A DNA stretch of 64,000 bases from Escherichia coli (lineage in GTDB: Bacteria > Pseudomonadota > Gammaproteobacteria > Enterobacterales > Enterobacteriaceae): the NCBI RefSeq assembly GCF_003334785.1, contig NZ_QOWV01000001.1. The stretch is one strand, 5' to 3'. Both the position numbers and the translations under genes were made by a program. The notes below the pieces were generated by a model. The model was given only the letters and a program-made list of their open reading frames with translations. It was not told where the DNA came from and made no database searches. Numbering within the stretch: position 1 is the first letter of the stretch; every line of letters starts with the position of its first letter. Shown here in pieces: positions 6,980 to 50,722 of the stretch.

Positions 6980-7806
6980 GAAGATTCTTCTGGCTGGTCG
7001 CTGCCGCTCTGTTATTGGCAGGGTGTGCAGGCGAAAAAGGCATTGTCGAGAAAGAGGGATATCAGCTTGATACCCGACGCCAGGCGCAGGCGGCGTATCC
7101 GCGCATTAAAGTGCTGGTGATCCACTACACCGCAGATGATTTTGATAGCTCGCTGGCGACACTGACCGATAAGCAGGTCAGCTCGCATTATCTGGTCCCT
7201 GCGGTACCACCGCGATACAACGGTAAACCGCGCATCTGGCAACTGGTGCCGGAACAAGAACTGGCCTGGCATGCGGGGATTAGCGCCTGGCGCGGGGCAA
7301 CGCGCCTTAACGACACCTCTATTGGCATTGAGCTGGAAAACCGTGGCTGGCAAAAATCGGCCGGAGTGAAATATTTTGCCCCGTTTGAACCGGCACAGAT
7401 TCAGGCGCTTATTCCACTGGCGAAAGATATTATTGCCCGTTATCACATCAAGCCGGAAAACGTAGTGGCACATGCGGATATCGCACCGCAGCGCAAAGAC
7501 GATCCGGGGCCATTATTTCCCTGGCAGCAACTGGCGCAGCAGGGGATTGGTGCCTGGCCGGATGCGCAGCGGGTTAACTTTTACCTTGCCGGGCGCGCGC
7601 CGCACACACCGGTAGATACCGCGTCATTGCTGGAGCTTTTGGCGCGCTACGGTTATGACGTTAAACCTGATATGACACCGCGCGAGCAGCGGCGCGTGAT
7701 TATGGCATTCCAGATGCATTTCCGCCCGACGTTATATAACGGCGAAGCGGATGCAGAAACTCAGGCGATTGCCGAAGCATTGCTGGAGAAATACGGGCAG
7801 GATTAG
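6976..7806 (+). CDS. amiD: N-acetylmuramoyl-L-alanine amidase AmiD (lipoprotein)
   Basis: 276 aa; lipobox LLAGC; amidase_2/PGRP-like body. Confidence 0.9.
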
Positions 7807-17414: not shown

Positions 17415-18110
17415 TTAATCACGCTTTTCCAGCAGGGTCCGGTAAATCAGACCACCGATAATGCCGCCGACAATTGGCACCACCCAGAAGAACCACAGTT
17501 GTTCTAATGCCCAGCCGCCCTGGAAGATAGCAACCGCGGTGCTGCGCGCCGGGTTAACAGAAGTGTTAGTCACCGGAATACTAATTAAGTGAATCAGGGT
17601 TAAGGCCAGACCAATAGCGATCGGCGCAAAACCTGCCGGCGCGAATTTGTCGGTTGCGCCGTGGATCACCAACAGGAAACCTGCACTCAATACCAGTTCA
17701 ACTACCAGCGCGGAAAGCATGGAATAACCGCCTGGTGAATGCTCGCCATAACCGTTAGAAGCAAAACCGCTGGCTGCCGCGTCAAAACCCGTTTTACCAC
17801 TGGCAATTAAATACAGCAGCGCCGCTGCAACAATACCGCCGACAACCTGGGCAATTACGTAGCCAACGACTTCTTTTGCCGGAAAACGTCCGCCAGCCCA
17901 TAAACCAATAGTGACCGCCGGGTTAAAATGACCACCAGAAATATGACCAACAGCAAAGGCCATCGTCAGAACGGTCAGACCGAACGCCAACGCCACGCCG
18001 GCAAAACCAATGCCTAATTCCGGGAAGCCTGCGGCCAGTACAGCACTACCACAGCCACCAAAAACAAGCCAGAAAGTACCAAAACATTCAGCTGCTAATT
18101 TTCTGAACAT
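17415..18110 (-). CDS. aqpZ: aquaporin Z
   Basis: 231-aa MIP-family channel with two NPA motifs (GGHFNPAVT and NPARS). Confidence 0.95.
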
Positions 18111-18535
18111 ATCCACCTCAATTAAAAATTGACCCTGTGAAAAATATGGTCGTTTTATAGGGTCGTCGTAAAAAAGTGACGACGGAAATAATGCGCGGCT
18201 ATTTTAAAAACGAAGGCGAGTCATTCACCAGATAAATAAATCCAGTAAATTTGATTTAGGGCAACAGCGGGTTGCCCCATATAGTCATTTGTCTGATTGA
18301 CAGTGTAGTGCACGCAAAAGATTTAATCCTTTAGGCGTAATAAAAAATAATTTATCATGCTAATTATTTGATTTTGTTGTTTTTGCAGACTTATCAGCAA
18401 GAGGGAGTATAACGCGATTATTCGCTCATTTTTCAGACATTTGCCATGCTTAAATGTGATGTCATCACGTATTAGCAAGGCCTTTCCCGTTATACTGCCA
18501 GCGTAAAGGATAAGTCACATATTTCTGGAGGGGAT

Positions 18536-20194
18536 ATGATTCTTGAGCGCGTTGAAATTGTGGGTTTTCGCGGTATCAACCGTTTGTCGTTGATGCTGGA
18601 ACAAAACAACGTCCTGATTGGGGAGAACGCGTGGGGTAAATCCAGCTTGCTGGACGCCTTAACTCTGCTGCTATCGCCAGAATCAGATCTCTACCATTTT
18701 GAGCGCGACGATTTCTGGTTCCCGCCGGGAGATATCAACGGGCGAGAACATCATCTGCATATTATTTTGACCTTCCGCGAATCGCTGCCAGGCCGACATC
18801 GGGTTCGCCGTTATCGGCCGCTGGAAGCGTGCTGGACGCCATGCACCGATGGCTATCACCGTATTTTTTATCGTCTGGAAGGGGAGAGTGCGGAAGACGG
18901 CAGCGTGATGACACTGCGCAGTTTTCTCGATAAAGACGGACATCCGATTGATGTCGAGGATATTAACGATCAGGCACGCCATCTGGTGCGTTTAATGCCG
19001 GTGCTGCGCTTGCGTGATGCCCGTTTTATGCGCCGTATTCGTAACGGCACGGTGCCAAATGTCCCTAATGTGGAAGTCACCGCGCGCCAGCTCGATTTCC
19101 TCGCCCGTGAGTTATCCTCACATCCGCAAAATCTCTCTGATGGGCAGATTCGTCAGGGACTTTCCGCAATGGTACAGCTGCTTGAGCATTATTTCTCTGA
19201 GCAGGGGGCCGGACAGGCGCGATATCGTTTAATGCGGCGGCGAGCCAGCAATGAGCAACGAAGCTGGCGCTATCTGGATATCATCAACCGGATGATTGAC
19301 CGACCTGGTGGGCGCTCGTATCGGGTTATTTTGCTCGGCCTATTTGCTACTTTGTTGCAGGCAAAAGGCACATTGCGACTGGATAAAGACGCCCGTCCAT
19401 TGTTGCTGATCGAAGATCCAGAAACCCGTTTACACCCCATTATGCTTTCAGTTGCCTGGCATCTGTTGAATCTTCTGCCATTGCAGCGCATTGCCACCAC
19501 CAACTCGGGTGAGTTGCTTTCGTTAACGCCGGTAGAGCATGTTTGCCGACTGGTACGTGAGTCCTCGCGCGTTGCCGCCTGGCGTCTGGGGCCGAGTGGC
19601 TTGAGTACCGAAGATAGCCGACGCATATCCTTTCACATTCGTTTTAACCGTCCGTCATCGCTGTTTGCACGCTGCTGGTTGCTGGTGGAAGGGGAAACGG
19701 AAACCTGGGTTATCAATGAACTGGCGCGTCAGTGCGGACATCATTTTGATGCCGAAGGGATCAAGGTCATTGAGTTTGCCCAGTCCGGGCTAAAGCCACT
19801 GGTTAAATTTGCCCGCCGAATGGGGATTGAATGGCATGTACTGGTCGATGGCGATGAAGCAGGGAAGAAATATGCCGCTACGGTACGCAGCCTGTTGAAT
19901 AACGATCGGGAAGCCGAACGAGAACATTTAACGGCGTTACCGGCGCTGGATATGGAACATTTTATGTATCGCCAGGGATTTTCCGATGTGTTCCACCGCA
20001 TGGCGCAAATCCCGGAAAATGTACCGATGAATCTACGCAAAATTATCTCGAAAGCGATCCATCGCTCTTCCAAACCCGATCTTGCCATTGAAGTGGCAAT
20101 GGAGGCAGGACGTCGTGGTGTGGACTCCGTACCGACGCTGCTGAAAAAAATGTTCTCACGCGTGCTGTGGCTGGCGCGCGGTCGCGCGGATTAA
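18536..20194 (+). CDS. ybjD: OLD-family ATPase-Toprim protein YbjD
   Basis: 552 aa; N-terminal P-loop GENAWGKSS, Walker-B-like LLLIEDPE, C-terminal Toprim-like E (LLVEGETE) and DxD (VLVDGDEAG). Confidence 0.85.
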   Translation: MILERVEIVGFRGINRLSLMLEQNNVLIGENAWGKSSLLDALTLLLSPESDLYHFERDDFWFPPGDINGREHHLHIILTFRESLPGRHRVRRYRPLEACWTPCTDGYHRIFYRLEGESAEDGSVMTLRSFLDKDGHPIDVEDINDQARHLVRLMPVLRLRDARFMRRIRNGTVPNVPNVEVTARQLDFLARELSSHPQNLSDGQIRQGLSAMVQLLEHYFSEQGAGQARYRLMRRRASNEQRSWRYLDIINRMIDRPGGRSYRVILLGLFATLLQAKGTLRLDKDARPLLLIEDPETRLHPIMLSVAWHLLNLLPLQRIATTNSGELLSLTPVEHVCRLVRESSRVAAWRLGPSGLSTEDSRRISFHIRFNRPSSLFARCWLLVEGETETWVINELARQCGHHFDAEGIKVIEFAQSGLKPLVKFARRMGIEWHVLVDGDEAGKKYAATVRSLLNNDREAEREHLTALPALDMEHFMYRQGFSDVFHRMAQIPENVPMNLRKIISKAIHRSSKPDLAIEVAMEAGRRGVDSVPTLLKKMFSRVLWLARGRAD

Positions 20195-21183
20195 CCGCGA
20201 AACATCGTGGCCATTTGTGGCTGAATAGCGTCGAGCATCTCATAGCGCCGACGGTATTCAGCCCGTTTTTTACTGGCGATTTCGGCAATCTCTTTTCGTG
20301 CTATCTGTGCTGGAAGGCGGTAATGGCGTTCAGCATCACATACGCCGCCAACCGATTCCCAGAAAGCGTTGTAATCAGCGTGGATCTTGCCTTCTTTATC
20401 GCGATAACGCAGGCTGCGGTAAATATGCGTTTCATTGCTGACGGCAATAATCTGCTCTACCTGCAAACGTTGGGCAAACAGACAGGCCGCTTCCATCACG
20501 AGGCGTTTGGGAAATAGCCCGTGGCAGGCTTTCGTCGCATTCTGGATTTCCTGATGTGGAATTTCCCATTTTGCGCCTTGCAGTCCGCCAATAAACATCG
20601 TTCTTTTCCCCTGATATTCACACAGGGTAAACGTGATCTCTGCCAGAGGAATACCTTCGCTGTTGCGGAACAGGATTGTGCTGTCACCTTCTTTATCCAT
20701 TGAGATCATCATGGTCAGCTCAAGCGTGAACTGCTCGCCGTTTTTGCCTTCCAGCTTCGCCAGTTGCAGCCCGGGGGTATTCAAATATAAGCTGAATTCT
20801 TCCGCCGACATACATTCGCGGAGTAACGCATAATGGTAACGTAACGCCTCCAGCAATTGCTTACGGCTAAGATTCGCCGCAAGGTAAGGGCGATGCAGAC
20901 GCACAGGCAGTCGCGGCTGGCGCGTTAACAATACATTGAGATTAGGCCAGTGGGAAAGTTCGTTCATCCACTCAACGCTTAAACGCGGCATAATCAACGA
21001 GCGCAGCAAAAATTTCTGGCGAAAACTACGGCGATGCCAGAATTTACCCGGCCGACACTGTCCACGTGCCAGACTAAGAAAAAGTGACAGGCTGCTGAGA
21101 GATTCAGATGGCGTAAAGGTCCGTTCAGTTAGCTGCGACATATTCATGAAATCAATGGTTATACATGGCGTCGATTTCACCAT
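20191..21183 (-). CDS. ybjX: VirK-like DUF535 protein YbjX
   Basis: 330-aa ORF convergent with ybjD; stop codons overlap (TTAA at 20191-20194). Confidence 0.8.
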   Translation of the reverse strand: MVKSTPCITIDFMNMSQLTERTFTPSESLSSLSLFLSLARGQCRPGKFWHRRSFRQKFLLRSLIMPRLSVEWMNELSHWPNLNVLLTRQPRLPVRLHRPYLAANLSRKQLLEALRYHYALLRECMSAEEFSLYLNTPGLQLAKLEGKNGEQFTLELTMMISMDKEGDSTILFRNSEGIPLAEITFTLCEYQGKRTMFIGGLQGAKWEIPHQEIQNATKACHGLFPKRLVMEAACLFAQRLQVEQIIAVSNETHIYRSLRYRDKEGKIHADYNAFWESVGGVCDAERHYRLPAQIARKEIAEIASKKRAEYRRRYEMLDAIQPQMATMFRG

Positions 21184-21297
21184 TGCGTATCTTAACCAAA
21201 CATCAATAGTGTGATTACTAACGTAAATTTTAGGGTTTTGTTGATATTTCGTTGAAGTTAATGACCCGGATTGGCATATGGAGTATTCAGAAAATTT

Positions 21298-22413
21298 ATG
21301 AAAAAGCGGAAAACCGTGAAGAAGCGTTACGTTATTGCGCTGGTGATAGTCATCGCCGGACTGATTACGTTATGGAGAATTCTTAACGCACCCGTGCCGA
21401 CTTATCAGACGCTGATTGTGCGCCCCGGTGATTTACAGCAAAGCGTGCTGGCGACCGGAAAGCTGGACGCGCTGCGTAAGGTTGATGTGGGCGCGCAGGT
21501 CAGCGGTCAGTTGAAAACTCTGTCGGTGGCGATTGGCGATAAAGTAAAAAAAGACCAGCTTTTAGGGGTTATTGATCCTGAACAGGCTGAAAACCAGATT
21601 AAGGAGGTCGAAGCAACGCTGATGGAGCTACGTGCGCAGCGGCAGCAGGCGGAAGCGGAGCTGAAACTGGCGCGGGTGACGTATTCCCGTCAGCAACGTC
21701 TGGCACAAACGAAGGCTGTTTCACAGCAGGATCTCGACACCGCCGCGACGGAGATGGCTGTGAAACAGGCGCAAATTGGCACCATTGACGCGCAAATCAA
21801 GCGCAATCAGGCTTCTCTCGATACGGCTAAAACCAATCTCGATTACACTCGCATCGTTGCCCCGATGGCCGGGGAAGTCACGCAAATCACCACTCTGCAA
21901 GGCCAGACGGTGATTGCCGCACAACAAGCACCGAACATTCTGACGCTGGCAGATATGAGCACCATGCTGGTAAAAGCGCAGGTTTCTGAAGCGGATGTAA
22001 TCCACCTGAAGCCGGGGCAAAAAGCCTGGTTTACGGTGCTTGGCGATCCACTGACGCGCTACGAGGGGCAAATCAAGGATGTACTACCGACGCCGGAAAA
22101 GGTTAACGACGCTATTTTCTATTACGCCCGTTTTGAAGTCCCCAACCCCAATGGTTTGCTGCGGCTGGATATGACTGCGCAAGTGCATATTCAGCTCACC
22201 GATGTGAAAAATGTGCTGACGATCCCTCTGTCGGCGTTAGGCGATCCGGTTGGCGATAATCGTTATAAAGTCAAATTGTTGCGTAATGGTGAAACACGCG
22301 AGCGTGAAGTGACGATTGGCGCACGTAACGATACCGATGTTGAGATTGTCAAAGGGCTTGAAGCGGGCGATGAAGTGGTGATTGGTGAGGCCAAACCAGG
22401 AGCTGCACAATGA
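21298..22413 (+). CDS. macA: macrolide efflux periplasmic adaptor MacA
   Basis: 371 aa from [18 protein letters not shown]; membrane-fusion-protein coiled-coil and barrel regions; stop overlaps macB start. Confidence 0.9.
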
Positions 22414-24356
22414 CGCCTTTGCTCGAATTAAAGGATATTCGTCGCAGCTATCCTGCCGGTGATGAGCAGGTTGAGGTGCTGAAGGGCATCAGCCTCGATA
22501 TTTATGCGGGTGAGATGGTCGCGATTGTTGGCGCTTCGGGTTCCGGTAAATCGACCCTGATGAATATTCTCGGCTGTCTGGATAAGGCCACCAGCGGCAC
22601 CTATCGCGTCGCCGGTCAGGATGTTGCCACGCTGGACGCCGATGCGCTGGCGCAACTGCGCCGCGAGCATTTCGGCTTTATTTTCCAGCGTTACCATTTG
22701 CTTTCGCATTTAACCGCCGAGCAGAACGTTGAAGTACCCGCCGTCTATGCTGGTCTTGAGCGGAAACAGCGACTGCTTCGTGCCCAGGAGTTGCTGCAAC
22801 GGCTGGGGCTGGAAGACCGTACAGAGTATTATCCGGCACAGCTTTCGGGTGGTCAGCAACAGCGCGTCAGCATCGCGCGGGCATTGATGAACGGTGGTCA
22901 GGTAATTCTTGCCGATGAACCAACCGGCGCACTGGACAGCCATTCTGGCGAAGAGGTGATGGCGATCCTGCATCAGCTGCGCGATCGTGGGCATACGGTG
23001 ATTATCGTCACCCACGATCCGCAGGTCGCTGCTCAGGCCGAGCGGGTGATCGAAATTCGCGACGGCGAAATTGTGCGCAATCCTCCCGCCATTGAAAAAG
23101 TGAATGTTACTGGCGGGACGGAACCTGTTGTCAACACGGTGTCTGGCTGGCGGCAGTTTGTCAGCGGTTTTAACGAGGCGCTGACGATGGCATGGCGGGC
23201 GCTGGCAGCGAATAAAATGCGTACTTTACTGACCATGCTGGGGATTATTATCGGTATTGCGTCGGTGGTTTCCATTGTCGTGGTGGGTGACGCCGCCAAA
23301 CAAATGGTGCTGGCGGATATTCGTTCTATTGGTACGAATACTATTGATGTCTATCCCGGGAAAGATTTTGGCGATGACGATCCGCAATATCAGCAGGCGC
23401 TGAAGTACGACGACTTAATCGCCATCCAAAAACAACCGTGGGTCGCCTCAGCCACACCTGCCGTCTCGCAAAACCTGCGCCTGCGTTATAACAATGTTGA
23501 TGTTGCTGCCAGTGCCAATGGCGTGAGCGGCGATTATTTTAATGTCTATGGCATGACCTTCAGTGAAGGAAACACCTTTAATCAGGAGCAGCTGAACGGT
23601 CGTGCGCAGGTCGTGGTTCTCGACAGTAATACTCGCCGCCAGCTTTTCCCCCATAAAGCAGATGTGGTTGGCGAGGTGATTCTGGTCGGCAATATGCCCG
23701 CCAGAGTCATTGGTGTGGCGGAAGAAAAACAGTCGATGTTTGGTAGCAGTAAAGTGCTGCGTGTCTGGCTACCTTACAGCACGATGTCCGGGCGAGTTAT
23801 GGGCCAGTCGTGGCTTAACTCCATTACTGTCAGGGTGAAAGAAGGATTTGACAGCGCCGAGGCGGAACAGCAACTCACGCGTTTACTTTCACTGCGCCAC
23901 GGAAAGAAGGATTTCTTTACCTGGAACATGGACGGCGTCTTGAAAACTGTTGAAAAGACCACACGTACTTTACAACTGTTTCTGACGCTGGTGGCGGTGA
24001 TTTCGCTGGTGGTGGGCGGTATTGGTGTAATGAATATTATGCTGGTGTCAGTGACCGAGCGGACGCGGGAAATTGGCATTCGCATGGCTGTAGGTGCGCG
24101 AGCAAGCGATGTTTTGCAACAGTTCCTGATCGAAGCCGTACTGGTTTGCCTGGTCGGTGGCGCGTTGGGAATAACACTGTCACTGTTAATTGCTTTCACC
24201 TTGCAGCTTTTCTTACCCGGCTGGGAGATTGGTTTTTCACCGTTGGCGCTGCTGCTGGCGTTTCTCTGCTCGACGGTCACCGGGATTTTATTTGGCTGGT
24301 TACCCGCACGAAATGCGGCACGACTGGATCCAGTAGATGCTCTGGCACGAGAGTAA
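22410..24356 (+). CDS. macB: macrolide ABC exporter ATPase/permease MacB
   Basis: 648 aa; Walker [13 protein letters not shown] signature [16 protein letters not shown]-terminal FtsX-like permease domain. Confidence 0.95.
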
Positions 24357-24428
24357 TTTTTGAGATAAAAATGCCAGCCGATCGGGCTGGCATTTTGCCT
24401 TTAGGATGTACACAATGAGACAGAAGAG

Positions 24429-24653
24429 CTATGCGACTGCCGCTTCTACTTCGACGGGCACAATAACACTGGCGTGATTGCCTTTTGGCCCCTGGTGGAC
24501 ATCAAACTGAACGGATTGTCCAGCTTTTAGCGTTCTGTAACCATCCATCTGAATGGTGGAATAATGAGCGAAAATATCTTCGCCGCCGCCTTCAGGGCAG
24601 ATGAAACCAAACCCTTTGGCATTGTTGAACCACTTAACAGTACCCTTTTCCAT
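24429..24653 (-). CDS. cspD: cold-shock-like protein CspD
   Basis: 74 aa from MEKGTVKWFNNAKGFGFI (CSD RNP motifs). Confidence 0.9.
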   Translation of the reverse strand: MEKGTVKWFNNAKGFGFICPEGGGEDIFAHYSTIQMDGYRTLKAGQSVQFDVHQGPKGNHASVIVPVEVEAAVA

Positions 24654-24975
24654 GCTTCGACATCCTTCGCAAATCTTATACAAGTAAGATGGAATAAACC
24701 GGGGTCAGAGAGGGGGCTGTTCAAAACCTCGCCAACTCTAGAAATACAATTTAGAGAATTAGGGCGAGCCGTCAAGCATTTGACAGGGGACAAGGGGCAG
24801 GTATGAATCAAAAATTTGAAGCAGTTAACGCTATTGACAGGAATGTGACAGATGTCGCTGATGCCAACGATAGATGATAGTTATCTATCATGTGGAGTAG
24901 ATTGGTCAGGCAAATAAGCTCTTGTCAGCGGCAGGGCGTTCTGCCGATAACCGTAACCGAAGATGATAACTGACA

Positions 24976-49291: not shown

Positions 49292-50722
49292 ATGGCTGGG
49301 AATGTTCAGGAAAAACAGTTGCGATGGTACAACATTGCGCTGATGTCTTTTATCACTGTCTGGGGTTTTGGCAACGTTGTTAATAACTATGCCAACCAGG
49401 GGCTGGTGGTTGTTTTTTCATGGGTGTTTATCTTTGCACTCTATTTCACACCTTATGCGCTAATTGTTGGTCAGTTAGGCTCGACCTTCAAAGATGGGAA
49501 GGGCGGGGTCAGTACCTGGATTAAACACACGATGGGACCCGGACTGGCTTATCTCGCCGCGTGGACCTACTGGGTGGTGCATATTCCCTATCTGGCACAA
49601 AAACCCCAGGCAATTCTGATTGCGCTCGGTTGGGCGATGAAAGGCGACGGTTCGCTAATCAAAGAATATTCAGTCGTAGCGTTACAGGGGTTAACGCTGG
49701 TGCTGTTTATCTTCTTTATGTGGGTTGCTTCACGCGGTATGAAATCGCTGAAAATCGTCGGTTCTGTGGCAGGGATTGCTATGTTTGTTATGTCGCTCCT
49801 GTATGTGGCGATGGCGGTAACCGCGCCTGCAATTACTGAAGTGCATATTGCGACCACAAACATTACCTGGGAAACGTTCATTCCTCATATCGACTTTACC
49901 TACATTACCACTATTTCAATGCTGGTTTTCGCGGTTGGCGGAGCAGAGAAGATTTCTCCTTACGTTAATCAAACGCGCAACCCAGGAAAAGAATTTCCAA
50001 AAGGGATGTTATGCCTGGCGGTGATGGTTGCGGTTTGTGCCATTCTGGGCTCGCTGGCGATGGGGATGATGTTTGATTCGCGTAATATCCCGGATGACTT
50101 AATGACCAACGGTCAGTATTACGCCTTTCAGAAGCTGGGCGAGTATTACAACATGGGTAATACTTTAATGGTGATTTACGCCATTGCGAATACCCTGGGA
50201 CAAGTAGCGGCGCTGGTATTCTCGATTGATGCCCCGCTTAAAGTGCTATTAGGTGATGCTGACAGCAAATATATTCCAGCCAGTTTATGTCGTACCAACG
50301 CTTCTGGTACGCCCGTTAATGGCTATTTTCTGACCCTGGTACTGGTGGCGATTCTGATTATGCTGCCGACTCTCGGCATTGGTGATATGAACAATCTCTA
50401 TAAATGGCTGTTGAACCTTAATTCGGTAGTGATGCCGCTGCGTTATTTATGGGTATTTGTTGCATTTATTGCAGTCGTTCGCTTGGCGCAGAAATATAAA
50501 CCAGAATATGTCTTTATTCGTAATAAGCCTCTGGCAATGACCGTCGGGATTTGGTGTTTTGCCTTTACCGCCTTTGCCTGTTTGACGGGGATCTTCCCGA
50601 AAATGGAAGCCTTCACTGCAGAGTGGACCTTCCAGTTGGCGCTGAATGTTGCAACGCCGTTTGTGCTGGTAGGATTAGGACTGATATTCCCGCTGCTGGC
50701 GCGTAAAGCGAATAGTAAATAA
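49292..50722 (+). CDS. ycaM: APC-superfamily amino-acid transporter YcaM
   Basis: 476 aa from MAGNVQEKQLRWYNIALMSF; the track ORF start at 49100 runs through the ycaD terminator and is rejected. Confidence 0.8.
   Translation: MAGNVQEKQLRWYNIALMSFITVWGFGNVVNNYANQGLVVVFSWVFIFALYFTPYALIVGQLGSTFKDGKGGVSTWIKHTMGPGLAYLAAWTYWVVHIPYLAQKPQAILIALGWAMKGDGSLIKEYSVVALQGLTLVLFIFFMWVASRGMKSLKIVGSVAGIAMFVMSLLYVAMAVTAPAITEVHIATTNITWETFIPHIDFTYITTISMLVFAVGGAEKISPYVNQTRNPGKEFPKGMLCLAVMVAVCAILGSLAMGMMFDSRNIPDDLMTNGQYYAFQKLGEYYNMGNTLMVIYAIANTLGQVAALVFSIDAPLKVLLGDADSKYIPASLCRTNASGTPVNGYFLTLVLVAILIMLPTLGIGDMNNLYKWLLNLNSVVMPLRYLWVFVAFIAVVRLAQKYKPEYVFIRNKPLAMTVGIWCFAFTAFACLTGIFPKMEAFTAEWTFQLALNVATPFVLVGLGLIFPLLARKANSK

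Follow-up and report, generated by a model that had tools for sequence, protein, structure and literature searches.

The DNA analyzed here contains the known, well-studied ybjD–ybjX–macAB region of Escherichia coli K-12. The stop-codon overlap, the transcript overlap and the divergent promoter under PhoP control do exist, but each had been published before and is of a kind common in this genome. The ordinary, conserved ybjD/ybjX/macAB arrangement of the Enterobacteriaceae, with a neutral overlap of the two stop codons, is very probably the explanation. The window, that is, the whole stretch of 64,000 nucleotides that was analyzed, is 100% identical to E. coli K-12 NCM3722. Adding 897,937 to a window coordinate gives the MG1655 coordinate, and the MG1655 annotation has exactly the same ybjD and ybjX coordinates as the ORFs of the window. 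The gene order macBA-ybjX-ybjD was kept across the Enterobacteriaceae loci examined, and an Rfam scan of positions 18500–21300 gave no match. Published experiments established the transcription starts, PhoP box 1, the dependence on PhoP, the RNA-seq overlap and the Rho region; our own analysis contributes a predicted ybjD terminator, a putative overlap of the macA −35 element with a PhoP box, and the reading of the stop overlap as neutral. The consequence is small, being mostly a matter of tidying the annotation at ybjX, with the terminator prediction as a minor, testable addition.

The ybjD gene (18536–20194, plus strand) and ybjX (minus strand) converge on the tetranucleotide TTAA at 20191–20194, where the sequence context at 20190–20197 is a-TTAA-cc. 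The first-pass annotation had described this tetranucleotide as a pair of overlapping stops, and the sequence and both ORFs agree: the ybjD stop codon TAA occupies 20192–20194, and the ybjX stop codon TAA occupies 20191–20193 (TTA on the plus strand). The overlap is thus 4 nt long for the coding sequences and 2 nt long for the stop codons. All 15 Enterobacteriaceae loci examined have this arrangement, with TTAA, TTAG or CTAG as the shared tetranucleotide, and the YbjX C-terminus varied among these loci while the overlap stayed. The loci span Escherichia, Citrobacter, Salmonella, Enterobacter, Kluyvera and two other genera, and were drawn from a contig scan with exact peptide words (13 loci) and four look-ups by protein identity. 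The overlap is ordinary rather than unusual. Among the eight convergent gene pairs in the window, amiD/ybjS also has a 4-nt stop overlap (TTAG, 7803–7806), and ycaM and ycaN are directly adjacent (0 nt apart). The ybjD/ybjX overlap would be a frozen, selectively neutral packing of two genes, held in place because a protein would become longer if either stop were lost. Its perfect conservation could also reflect selection for antisense coupling. We also considered a short hairpin, CGCGG-ATTAA-CCGCG, that spans the TTAA as a candidate bidirectional terminator; it was rejected, as it was no more stable than shuffled sequences (z = −0.8 and −1.3) and neither strand carries a U-tract.

A further proposal, that the two transcripts overlap at their 3′ ends, agrees with published data. 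The geometry of the genes forces an overlap, and ybjD-ybjX is among the 165 convergent excludons of MG1655 identified by RNA-seq (ExcludonFinder, Nucleic Acids Res 2025, PMC12288877). In addition, minus-strand RNA is ended by Rho in a region at MG1655 917246 (Adams 2021 supplementary file 2); this is window position 19309, some 880 nt into ybjD. Reads upstream and downstream of this position were 299 and 18 without bicyclomycin and 568 and 545 with the drug, giving a Rho score of 15.9 (p = 6.9e-53; Adams 2021). The minus-strand 3′ extension of ybjX, antisense to ybjD, accordingly covers 19309–20190, on the assumption that the RNA ended by Rho at 19309 originates from the ybjX promoter. A C-rich, G-poor stretch of the minus-strand RNA is present at about 19690–19890, with C/G ratios of 1.4–1.9. 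RNA polymerase would pass the ybjX stop codon and enter ybjD in the antisense direction, and Rho would halt it several hundred nucleotides further on, near 19309.

The features shared with other MG1655 convergent excludons (PMC12288877) are transcription that overlaps at the 3′ ends, a terminator located within the neighboring gene, which is predicted here, and a short intergenic distance, which is negative here; mutual exclusion or RNase III processing is putative for ybjD-ybjX. The amiD/ybjS pair is in the same excludon list. There, too, transcription of the minus-strand gene continues into the plus-strand gene until Rho ends it, at 905089 (window 7152). The two pairs have unrelated gene functions, and amiD/ybjS is not known to be under PhoP control.

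The first-pass annotation had also stated that the overlapping stops leave no room for a terminator. This is correct for the space between the genes, whose length is zero, but a strong hairpin followed by six U residues lies inside ybjX, embedded in its codons, and is most likely the intrinsic terminator of ybjD (20217–20271, plus strand). A consensus terminator scan performed at chance level (2 found, 2.1 expected) and caught only a 5-bp fragment of this hairpin; therefore, inverted-repeat and folding analyses were used instead. The hairpin (20217–20264) begins 23 nt past the ybjD stop codon. Its arms, at 20219–20233 and 20249–20263, form a 15-nt inverted repeat with 93% complementarity and are followed by a G and then by T6 at 20266–20271, so that the stable hairpin and U-tract of an intrinsic terminator are both present. 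The predicted fold has a 17-pair stem and a free energy of −26.7 kcal/mol (z = −4.8), and none of 200 shuffled sequences was as stable. In seven Escherichia loci 16–17 of the 17 pairs were kept, compared with 8–14 outside Escherichia. No plus-strand 3′ end near 918,2xx is present in the Adams 2021 tables, and the TERMITe tables contained no match; low expression could explain the absence of a mapped 3′ end at this site. In the proposed mechanism, ybjD has its own promoter and its transcript would end at the hairpin and U6 within the last ~26 codons of ybjX. Because the predicted ybjD terminator is inside ybjX and ybjX transcription reads through, the two mRNAs would be complementary over at least ~80 nt and up to ~900 nt.

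At the other end of ybjX, the start at 21183, which gives the longest ORF and is the start in the MG1655 annotation, is wrong. By primer extension and start-codon mutagenesis, ybjX transcription was placed some 18 nt downstream of position 21183, and its translation at M13 or M15, at 21147 or 21141 (Coluccia 2025, PMC12562796). The transcription start is a T at ~21165 (±1), and the −10 hexamer, supported by mutagenesis, is TGAAAT at 21179–21174; in a phylogenetic footprint this hexamer was 0.90 conserved across genera. The 5′ extension in the MG1655 annotation (21148–21183, minus strand) thus holds the −10 element and the transcription start, and lies outside the coding region of the mRNA. This extension was missing from orthologue gene calls. 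The RefSeq PGAP annotation starts ybjX at 21147, giving a 318-aa product and a coding sequence of 20191–21147 (minus strand); the alternative start at 21141 was more widely conserved. Since the promoter falls inside the annotated coding sequence, the MG1655 start codon should shift from 21183 to 21147 or 21141. With the start at 21147, the ybjX and macA start codons are 150 bp apart (21148–21297) and not about 115 bp as had been proposed for the divergent region, and the two transcription starts are ~59 bp apart. Another promoter-like site was seen at 20805–20834.

The PhoP link that had been suggested for ybjX holds: PhoP activates the gene directly, as published, through a box that lies between ybjX and macA. 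In Shigella flexneri, expression of ybjX is PhoP-dependent and responds to low Mg2+ via phoPQ (Coluccia 2025, PMC12562796), and the gene is directly activated in Salmonella (Zwir et al. 2012, PMC3335776). The promoter-proximal PhoP box 1, TATTGA-TGTTT-GGTTAA (21192–21208, minus strand), ends with GGTTAA at 21192, and the −10 element starts at 21179, leaving a spacer of 12 nt (21180–21191) as architecture II requires for its box in direct orientation. Mutating box 1 reduced ybjX expression in Shigella flexneri (Coluccia 2025, PMC12562796), and its Salmonella orthologue is the DNase-footprinted box GTATTGACGATTGGTTAAT (Zwir et al. 2012, PMC3335776). The half-sites of box 1 were 0.94 and 0.83 conserved.

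A putative second PhoP box, TGTTGA-TATTT-CGTTGA (21239–21255, plus strand), lies in reverse orientation to ybjX, 30 nt upstream of box 1 (gap 21209–21238). This box, TGTTGAtatttCGTTGA on the strand opposite to box 1, aligns with the Salmonella box TTGTTTAGATACGGTTTAC, the second one of architecture II, and matches it in position and orientation. Its half-sites were 0.85 and 0.88 conserved. When the second box is mutated in Salmonella, expression of ybjX falls by a factor of more than 8 (Zwir et al. 2012, PMC3335776). The promoters of Salmonella ybjX (somA; architecture II, PMC3335776) and Shigella flexneri ybjX (PMC12562796) belong to the same box class, TATTGA-N5-GGTTAA, and share with the E. 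coli promoter the 12-nt distance between box and −10, the reverse second box 30 nt upstream, the transcription start and the start codons. The E. coli second box is more degenerate, with GTTGA half-sites in place of GTTTA.

A search for PhoP boxes between ybjX and macA, as had been recommended, recovered two boxes conserved across genera and at the published spacing, but the match to the consensus was indistinct. Both boxes have 3 mismatches to (T/G)GTTTA-N5-(T/G)GTTTA, and at 3 mismatches the window contains 161 matches when 131 ± 11 are expected by chance. Both belong to published sub-motifs rather than to the canonical consensus. As consensus matches are near the chance level, we based the assignment of the boxes on the Shigella and Salmonella experiments and on conservation. 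PhoP bound at box 1 would replace the −35 element of the ybjX promoter, and the upstream reverse box would aid activation.

The macA (21298–22413) and macB (22410–24356) genes form a plus-strand operon that encodes a macrolide/peptide ABC efflux pump. Primer extension identified a proximal macA transcription start at the A at 21225 (Coluccia 2025), which is present in the window and gives a 5′ untranslated region of 73 nt (21225–21297); counted from this start, box 2 would span macA transcript positions of about +15 to +31. Judging from this published start, TTAACC (21191–21196), the complement of sequence within box 1, is the likely −35 element of macA. The macA proximal promoter stands back-to-back with the ybjX promoter, and its putative −35 would be under box 1. 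The proximal promoter region was poorly conserved (0.55). In Salmonella the macA transcription start is elsewhere, 504 nt upstream and inside ybjX, and the orthologous E. coli stretch is not conserved. The suggested PhoP link for macAB was borne out in part: in Salmonella, PhoP occupies a site upstream of macA, but the sign of its effect is disputed, as one study reported repression and another activation.

The 552-aa product of ybjD (b0876) is a Class 1 OLD-family ATPase/Toprim protein. Pfam identified an ABC-type ATPase (DUF2813/AAA) at the N-terminus and an OLD-like TOPRIM domain at the C-terminus, and PADLOC identified matches to GajA and Old profiles. The neighbors of ybjD are aqpZ and ybjX, with no adjacent helicase or retron genes, as befits Class 1. 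YbjD has been published as a stand-alone Class 1 OLD protein, which its authors treat as isolated, and it is cytotoxic when over-expressed. Among the matches listed, its homologues were at least 89% identical. Nothing links YbjD functionally to YbjX or MacAB.

Three other explanations of the locus were weighed. That the stop overlap is an annotation artefact, with one ORF truly ending earlier, draws on the fact that the locus does have annotation errors, as the 5′ end of ybjX illustrates. Both frames are open right up to the TTAA, however, and the YbjD C-terminus is RGRAD followed by the stop codon in 14 of the 15 loci and RGKAD in Kluyvera. The ybjX stop position is likewise kept in all 15, and the C-terminal helix of YbjX (residues 292–313) was modelled with high confidence. 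Conservation effectively refutes this explanation, which is hardly credible. It is also very unlikely that ybjD, ybjX and macAB constitute one PhoP-controlled envelope-stress module. The conserved gene order, PhoP boxes common to ybjX and macA, and published links of both YbjX/VirK and MacAB to antimicrobial-peptide resistance are consistent with such a module. Arguing against it are the conflicting effects of PhoP on macAB and the poor conservation of the macA proximal promoter together with the distant Salmonella start. In addition, YbjD comes from a phage-defence nuclease family and has no reported envelope phenotype or PhoP link, Massilia DUF535 loci have no ybjD or macAB neighbors within 3-kb flanks, and a single ybjX deletion has no phenotype in Shigella. 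The original suggestion of a co-regulated module with a nuclease neighbor was thus too strong, given the disputed sign at macAB and the lack of a functional tie for YbjD.

The remaining explanation is that the pair is a functional excludon in which PhoP-induced ybjX antisense RNA (up to ~900 nt) lowers the level of potentially toxic YbjD under low-Mg2+ or antimicrobial-peptide stress, either by transcriptional interference or because RNase III cleaves the duplex, with the conserved stop overlap guaranteeing the coupling. The excludon listing, the long Rho-terminated antisense RNA across ybjD, the retention of the overlap in 15 of 15 loci despite a variable YbjX C-terminus, the cytotoxicity of over-expressed YbjD and the strong PhoP inducibility of ybjX all fit this proposal. 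However, the same combination of overlap and Rho termination occurs at unrelated pairs such as amiD/ybjS, and therefore no special function is needed to explain it. Conservation of the overlap is expected in any case, since loss of a stop extends a protein, and ybjD appeared mildly up, not down, in cathelicidin-treated UPEC, in a library that may or may not be strand-specific. We consider this explanation unlikely. That the overlap and the ~900-nt antisense extension are a selected device by which PhoPQ, via ybjX, turns down core-genome YbjD under Mg2+ or antimicrobial-peptide stress is distinctly unlikely. If true, such a device would bring a nuclease/phage-defence function under the influence of envelope stress, and the antisense coupling would be a modest new excludon example in which a stress regulon is joined to a nuclease of the defence type; none of the present results calls for it. 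Neutral packing of an ordinary gene arrangement is the explanation that we favor.

The description of YbjX as VirK-like was confirmed by a full-length match to DUF535 (VirK/YbjX; PF04393, E = 1.4e-102), in which residues 36–313 align with positions 2–280 of the 281-position model. NCBIfam and PADLOC searches gave no match for YbjX, and the PDB contained no sequence relative. The VirK proteins of Shigella pINV, Salmonella and Klebsiella are DUF535 paralogues of the same Pfam family and predicted fold, and like YbjX they are under PhoP control and have been associated with outer-membrane integrity and resistance to cationic peptides. Unlike ybjX, virK is part of other operons (shf-rfbU-virK-msbB2); its phenotypes are stronger, and its reported cellular location differs between studies. 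YbjX itself would be a cytoplasmic DUF535 protein that supports outer-membrane integrity. In the predicted structure the C-terminal domain is similar to the GNAT core, in agreement with a published report, and this GNAT-like fold is probably that of an acyl-transferase. A conserved GGLQG motif (G187, Q190, G191) at a strand-to-helix junction of the model is suggestive only of a role in acyl-CoA binding or transfer. YbjX has 1684 relatives in a representative library clustered at 50% identity.

Every element of the first-pass finding was real, yet already described or common in this genome. Genome comparison gave 100% identity of 18400-21400 to E. coli K-12 strains, and 5425 of the 5426 complete E. 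coli genomes carry this region. According to the MG1655 annotation (NC_000913.3; MG1655 coordinate = window coordinate + 897,937), the genes are aqpZ (17415-18110, minus strand), ybjD (18536-20194, plus), ybjX (20191-21183, minus), macA (21298-22413, plus), macB (22410-24356, plus) and cspD (24429-24653, minus). YbjX is a full-length match to the DUF535/VirK family (Pfam, E = 1.4e-102). YbjD contains a DUF2813 ATPase domain and an OLD-type Toprim domain (Pfam) and matches GajA/Old profiles; a recent study describes it as a stand-alone Class 1 OLD protein with anti-phage phenotypes and toxicity upon over-expression, and the authors of that study see no link between YbjD and ybjX. The cspD leader and coding sequence (24365-24758, minus strand) scored 41.6 bits against the Rfam cspA thermoregulator family, a match below the gathering score of 78.

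Reading the junction sequence (...gcg gaT TAA ccg...) bore out the claim of the first-pass annotation that the ybjD and ybjX stop codons overlap in a TTAA. The ybjD stop is the TAA at 20192-20194, the ybjX stop is the minus-strand TAA at 20191-20193, and 4 nt are common to both coding sequences. A small hairpin spanning the TTAA itself folded no better than chance and was rejected. The convergent arrangement with the same 4-nt overlap was present in all 15 loci recovered and is old. These loci are 6 further Escherichia (E. albertii and E. whittamii among them), C. freundii and three other Citrobacter species, Salmonella enterica, one Enterobacter, Kluyvera, and two further Enterobacteriaceae in which YbjX has only 48% identity. 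Most of the overlaps read TTAA; Salmonella and C. freundii have TTAG, and one genome has CTAG. YbjD ends in RGRAD followed by the stop codon in 14/15 loci (RGKAD in Kluyvera), unlike the final residues of YbjX, which are variable. The Kluyvera locus (L016, 3001-5085) contains two tandem DUF535 genes between macA and ybjD, the second of which adjoins ybjD and retains the 4-nt overlap.

This overlap is not unusual. Eight convergent pairs are annotated in the 64-kb window, with gaps of 198 nt (rlmC/artJ), -4 nt (amiD/ybjS), -4 nt (ybjD/ybjX), 72 nt (macB/cspD), 343 nt (clpA/serW), 34 nt (dmsC/ycaC), 0 nt (ycaM/ycaN) and 81 nt (ycaK/pflA). The amiD and ybjS genes have TTAG at 7803-7806 in common, and ycaM and ycaN meet without any intergenic base at 50659-50660 (MG1655 948659/948660). 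All three of these closest pairs, ybjD-ybjX by name, are in an MG1655 list of 165 convergent excludons built from 58 RNA-seq data sets (PMC12288877).

The proposal that the ybjD and ybjX transcripts overlap was right and is already documented, by the excludon list and by a Rho-dependent termination region of Adams et al. 2021. This minus-strand region at 917246 (window 19309; Rho score 15.9, p = 6.9e-53) is classed as antisense to ybjD, which indicates that minus-strand RNA runs antisense over the 3′ part of ybjD. It lies ~880 nt past the ybjX stop codon. Over ~19690-19890 the minus-strand RNA is rich in C and poor in G (C/G ratio 1.4-1.9), in keeping with a Rho loading region, and we infer that the Rho-terminated RNA originates at the ybjX promoter. 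The amiD/ybjS pair mirrors ybjD/ybjX in combining a 4-nt stop overlap with a minus-strand Rho region antisense to the plus-strand gene (MG1655 905089, window 7152; Adams et al. 2021). Another published Rho termination region is antisense to macB (~22978, minus strand; MG1655 920915), probably resulting from cspD read-through.

The related claim that there is no room for a terminator held only for the intergenic space, which has zero length; a terminator-like hairpin sits within ybjX. On the plus strand, 23 nt past the ybjD stop, a 15-nt inverted repeat (20219-20233/20249-20263, 93% complementary) is part of a 17-pair hairpin (-26.7 kcal/mol, z = -4.8; 0 of 200 shuffles folded as well) followed by a G and then T6 at 20266-20271, all within the last ~26 codons of ybjX. 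In form this is a predicted intrinsic terminator for ybjD. The minus strand has the same hairpin without a U-tract after it; therefore, the predicted terminator would work in one direction only. All seven Escherichia loci keep 16-17 of the 17 pairs, with substitutions leaving a wobble pair in all but one case (a T-T mismatch in E. albertii), and pairing falls to 13-14/17 in the three Citrobacter species other than C. freundii, 10/17 in Salmonella and 8/17 in Enterobacter. No double compensatory changes were found among the compared loci, and the tables of Adams et al. 2021 contain no mapped 3′ end at the hairpin.

On the other side of ybjX, published start mapping revised the first-pass boundaries. 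The ybjX start at 21183 is the MG1655 annotation (330 aa). Coluccia et al. 2025, studying the Shigella flexneri locus with primer-extension RNA from E. coli DH10B into which the region had been cloned, placed the transcription start at a T lying 18 bp past the annotated ATG (~21165), found that mutation of the -10 hexamer TGAAAT (21179-21174) abolishes ybjX expression, and assigned translation to Met13 or Met15 (21147 or 21141; PMC12562796). PGAP also starts ybjX at 21147 (318 aa), and orthologues from Salmonella, Kluyvera, Enterobacter and C. freundii begin at the Met15 position with MSQ or MTQ. With translation from 21147, the start codons of ybjX and macA are 150 bp apart rather than ~115 bp. 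Since macA transcription starts at an A 73 bp upstream of its ATG (21225; PMC12562796), the two transcription starts are ~59 bp apart.

The suggested PhoP link was well founded. A PhoP box, TATTGA-5 bp-GGTTAA, overlaps the ybjX -35 element, and mutation of the box, deletion of phoP or phoQ, or high Mg2+ lowers ybjX expression (PMC12562796). In the window this box occupies 21208-21192 (minus strand), and 12 nt separate it from the -10. Salmonella ybjX has two footprinted boxes (Zwir et al. 2012, PMC3335776): mutation of the proximal box, GTATTGACGATTGGTTAAT, abolished expression, and mutation of the distal box, TTGTTTAGATACGGTTTAC, which lies 30 nt farther upstream in reverse orientation, reduced it >8-fold. 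In an alignment of 13 intergenic regions, E. coli TGTTGAtatttCGTTGA (21239-21255) aligned exactly with the distal Salmonella box, and it too is 30 nt from the proximal one. Conservation, as the fraction matching the window sequence across eight lineages, was 0.90 for the -10 hexamer, 0.94 and 0.83 for the proximal half-sites, 0.85 and 0.88 for the distal half-sites, 0.64 for the whole divergent region and 0.46-0.61 for flanking stretches. The boxes would not stand out from sequence alone: allowing 3 mismatches, the canonical PhoP consensus had 161 matches in the window versus 131 expected by chance.

For macAB, the complement of the proximal box, TTAACC (21191-21196), is at the expected macA -35 place, and the distal box covers roughly +15 to +31 in the macA transcript, a geometry from which repression at the proximal macA promoter would be expected. 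The Salmonella data conflict: PhoP was reported to bind and repress in one study, whereas a later one reported that PhoP supports macAB transcription from the main start, which maps inside ybjX, 504 nt upstream of macA. The E. coli stretch orthologous to that start is not conserved, and conservation is low (0.55) in the segment that holds the E. coli macA promoter. On the macA strand, antisense inside ybjX, promoter-like sites occur at 20805-20834 and about 20764-20791. A sigma-32 ChIP study reported low-level association with ybjX, a disputed target (PMC3738151).

Joining the three genes into one envelope-stress module was an overreach. In Massilia, the 3-kb flanks fetched around DUF535 genes contain neither ybjD nor macA, and we found no evidence for a part of YbjD in envelope stress. 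The one reading with some novelty would be a tuning of the OLD protein YbjD by antisense transcription under PhoP; nothing requires such tuning, and we consider it improbable. In UPEC, ybjD (UTI89_C0880) is among the genes affected by the cathelicidin-derived peptide B22 (tabulated value 1.31; PMC6737244). If the library was not strand-specific, this signal might stem from antisense read-through of PhoP-induced ybjX. YbjD conservation together with near-universal presence in E. coli hints at a housekeeping role. YbjD (18536-20194) is far more conserved than YbjX (20191-21147) in the relatives' loci L008-L012 and L015-L018; in the five scored within the same genomes (L008-L012), identities were 85-91% versus 48-77%, and the Salmonella homologues are ~90% versus 58% identical. 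Such conservation, with both genes on a 3-kb stretch present in 5425/5426 E. coli genomes, is not usual among proteins grouped with mobile anti-phage OLD nucleases.
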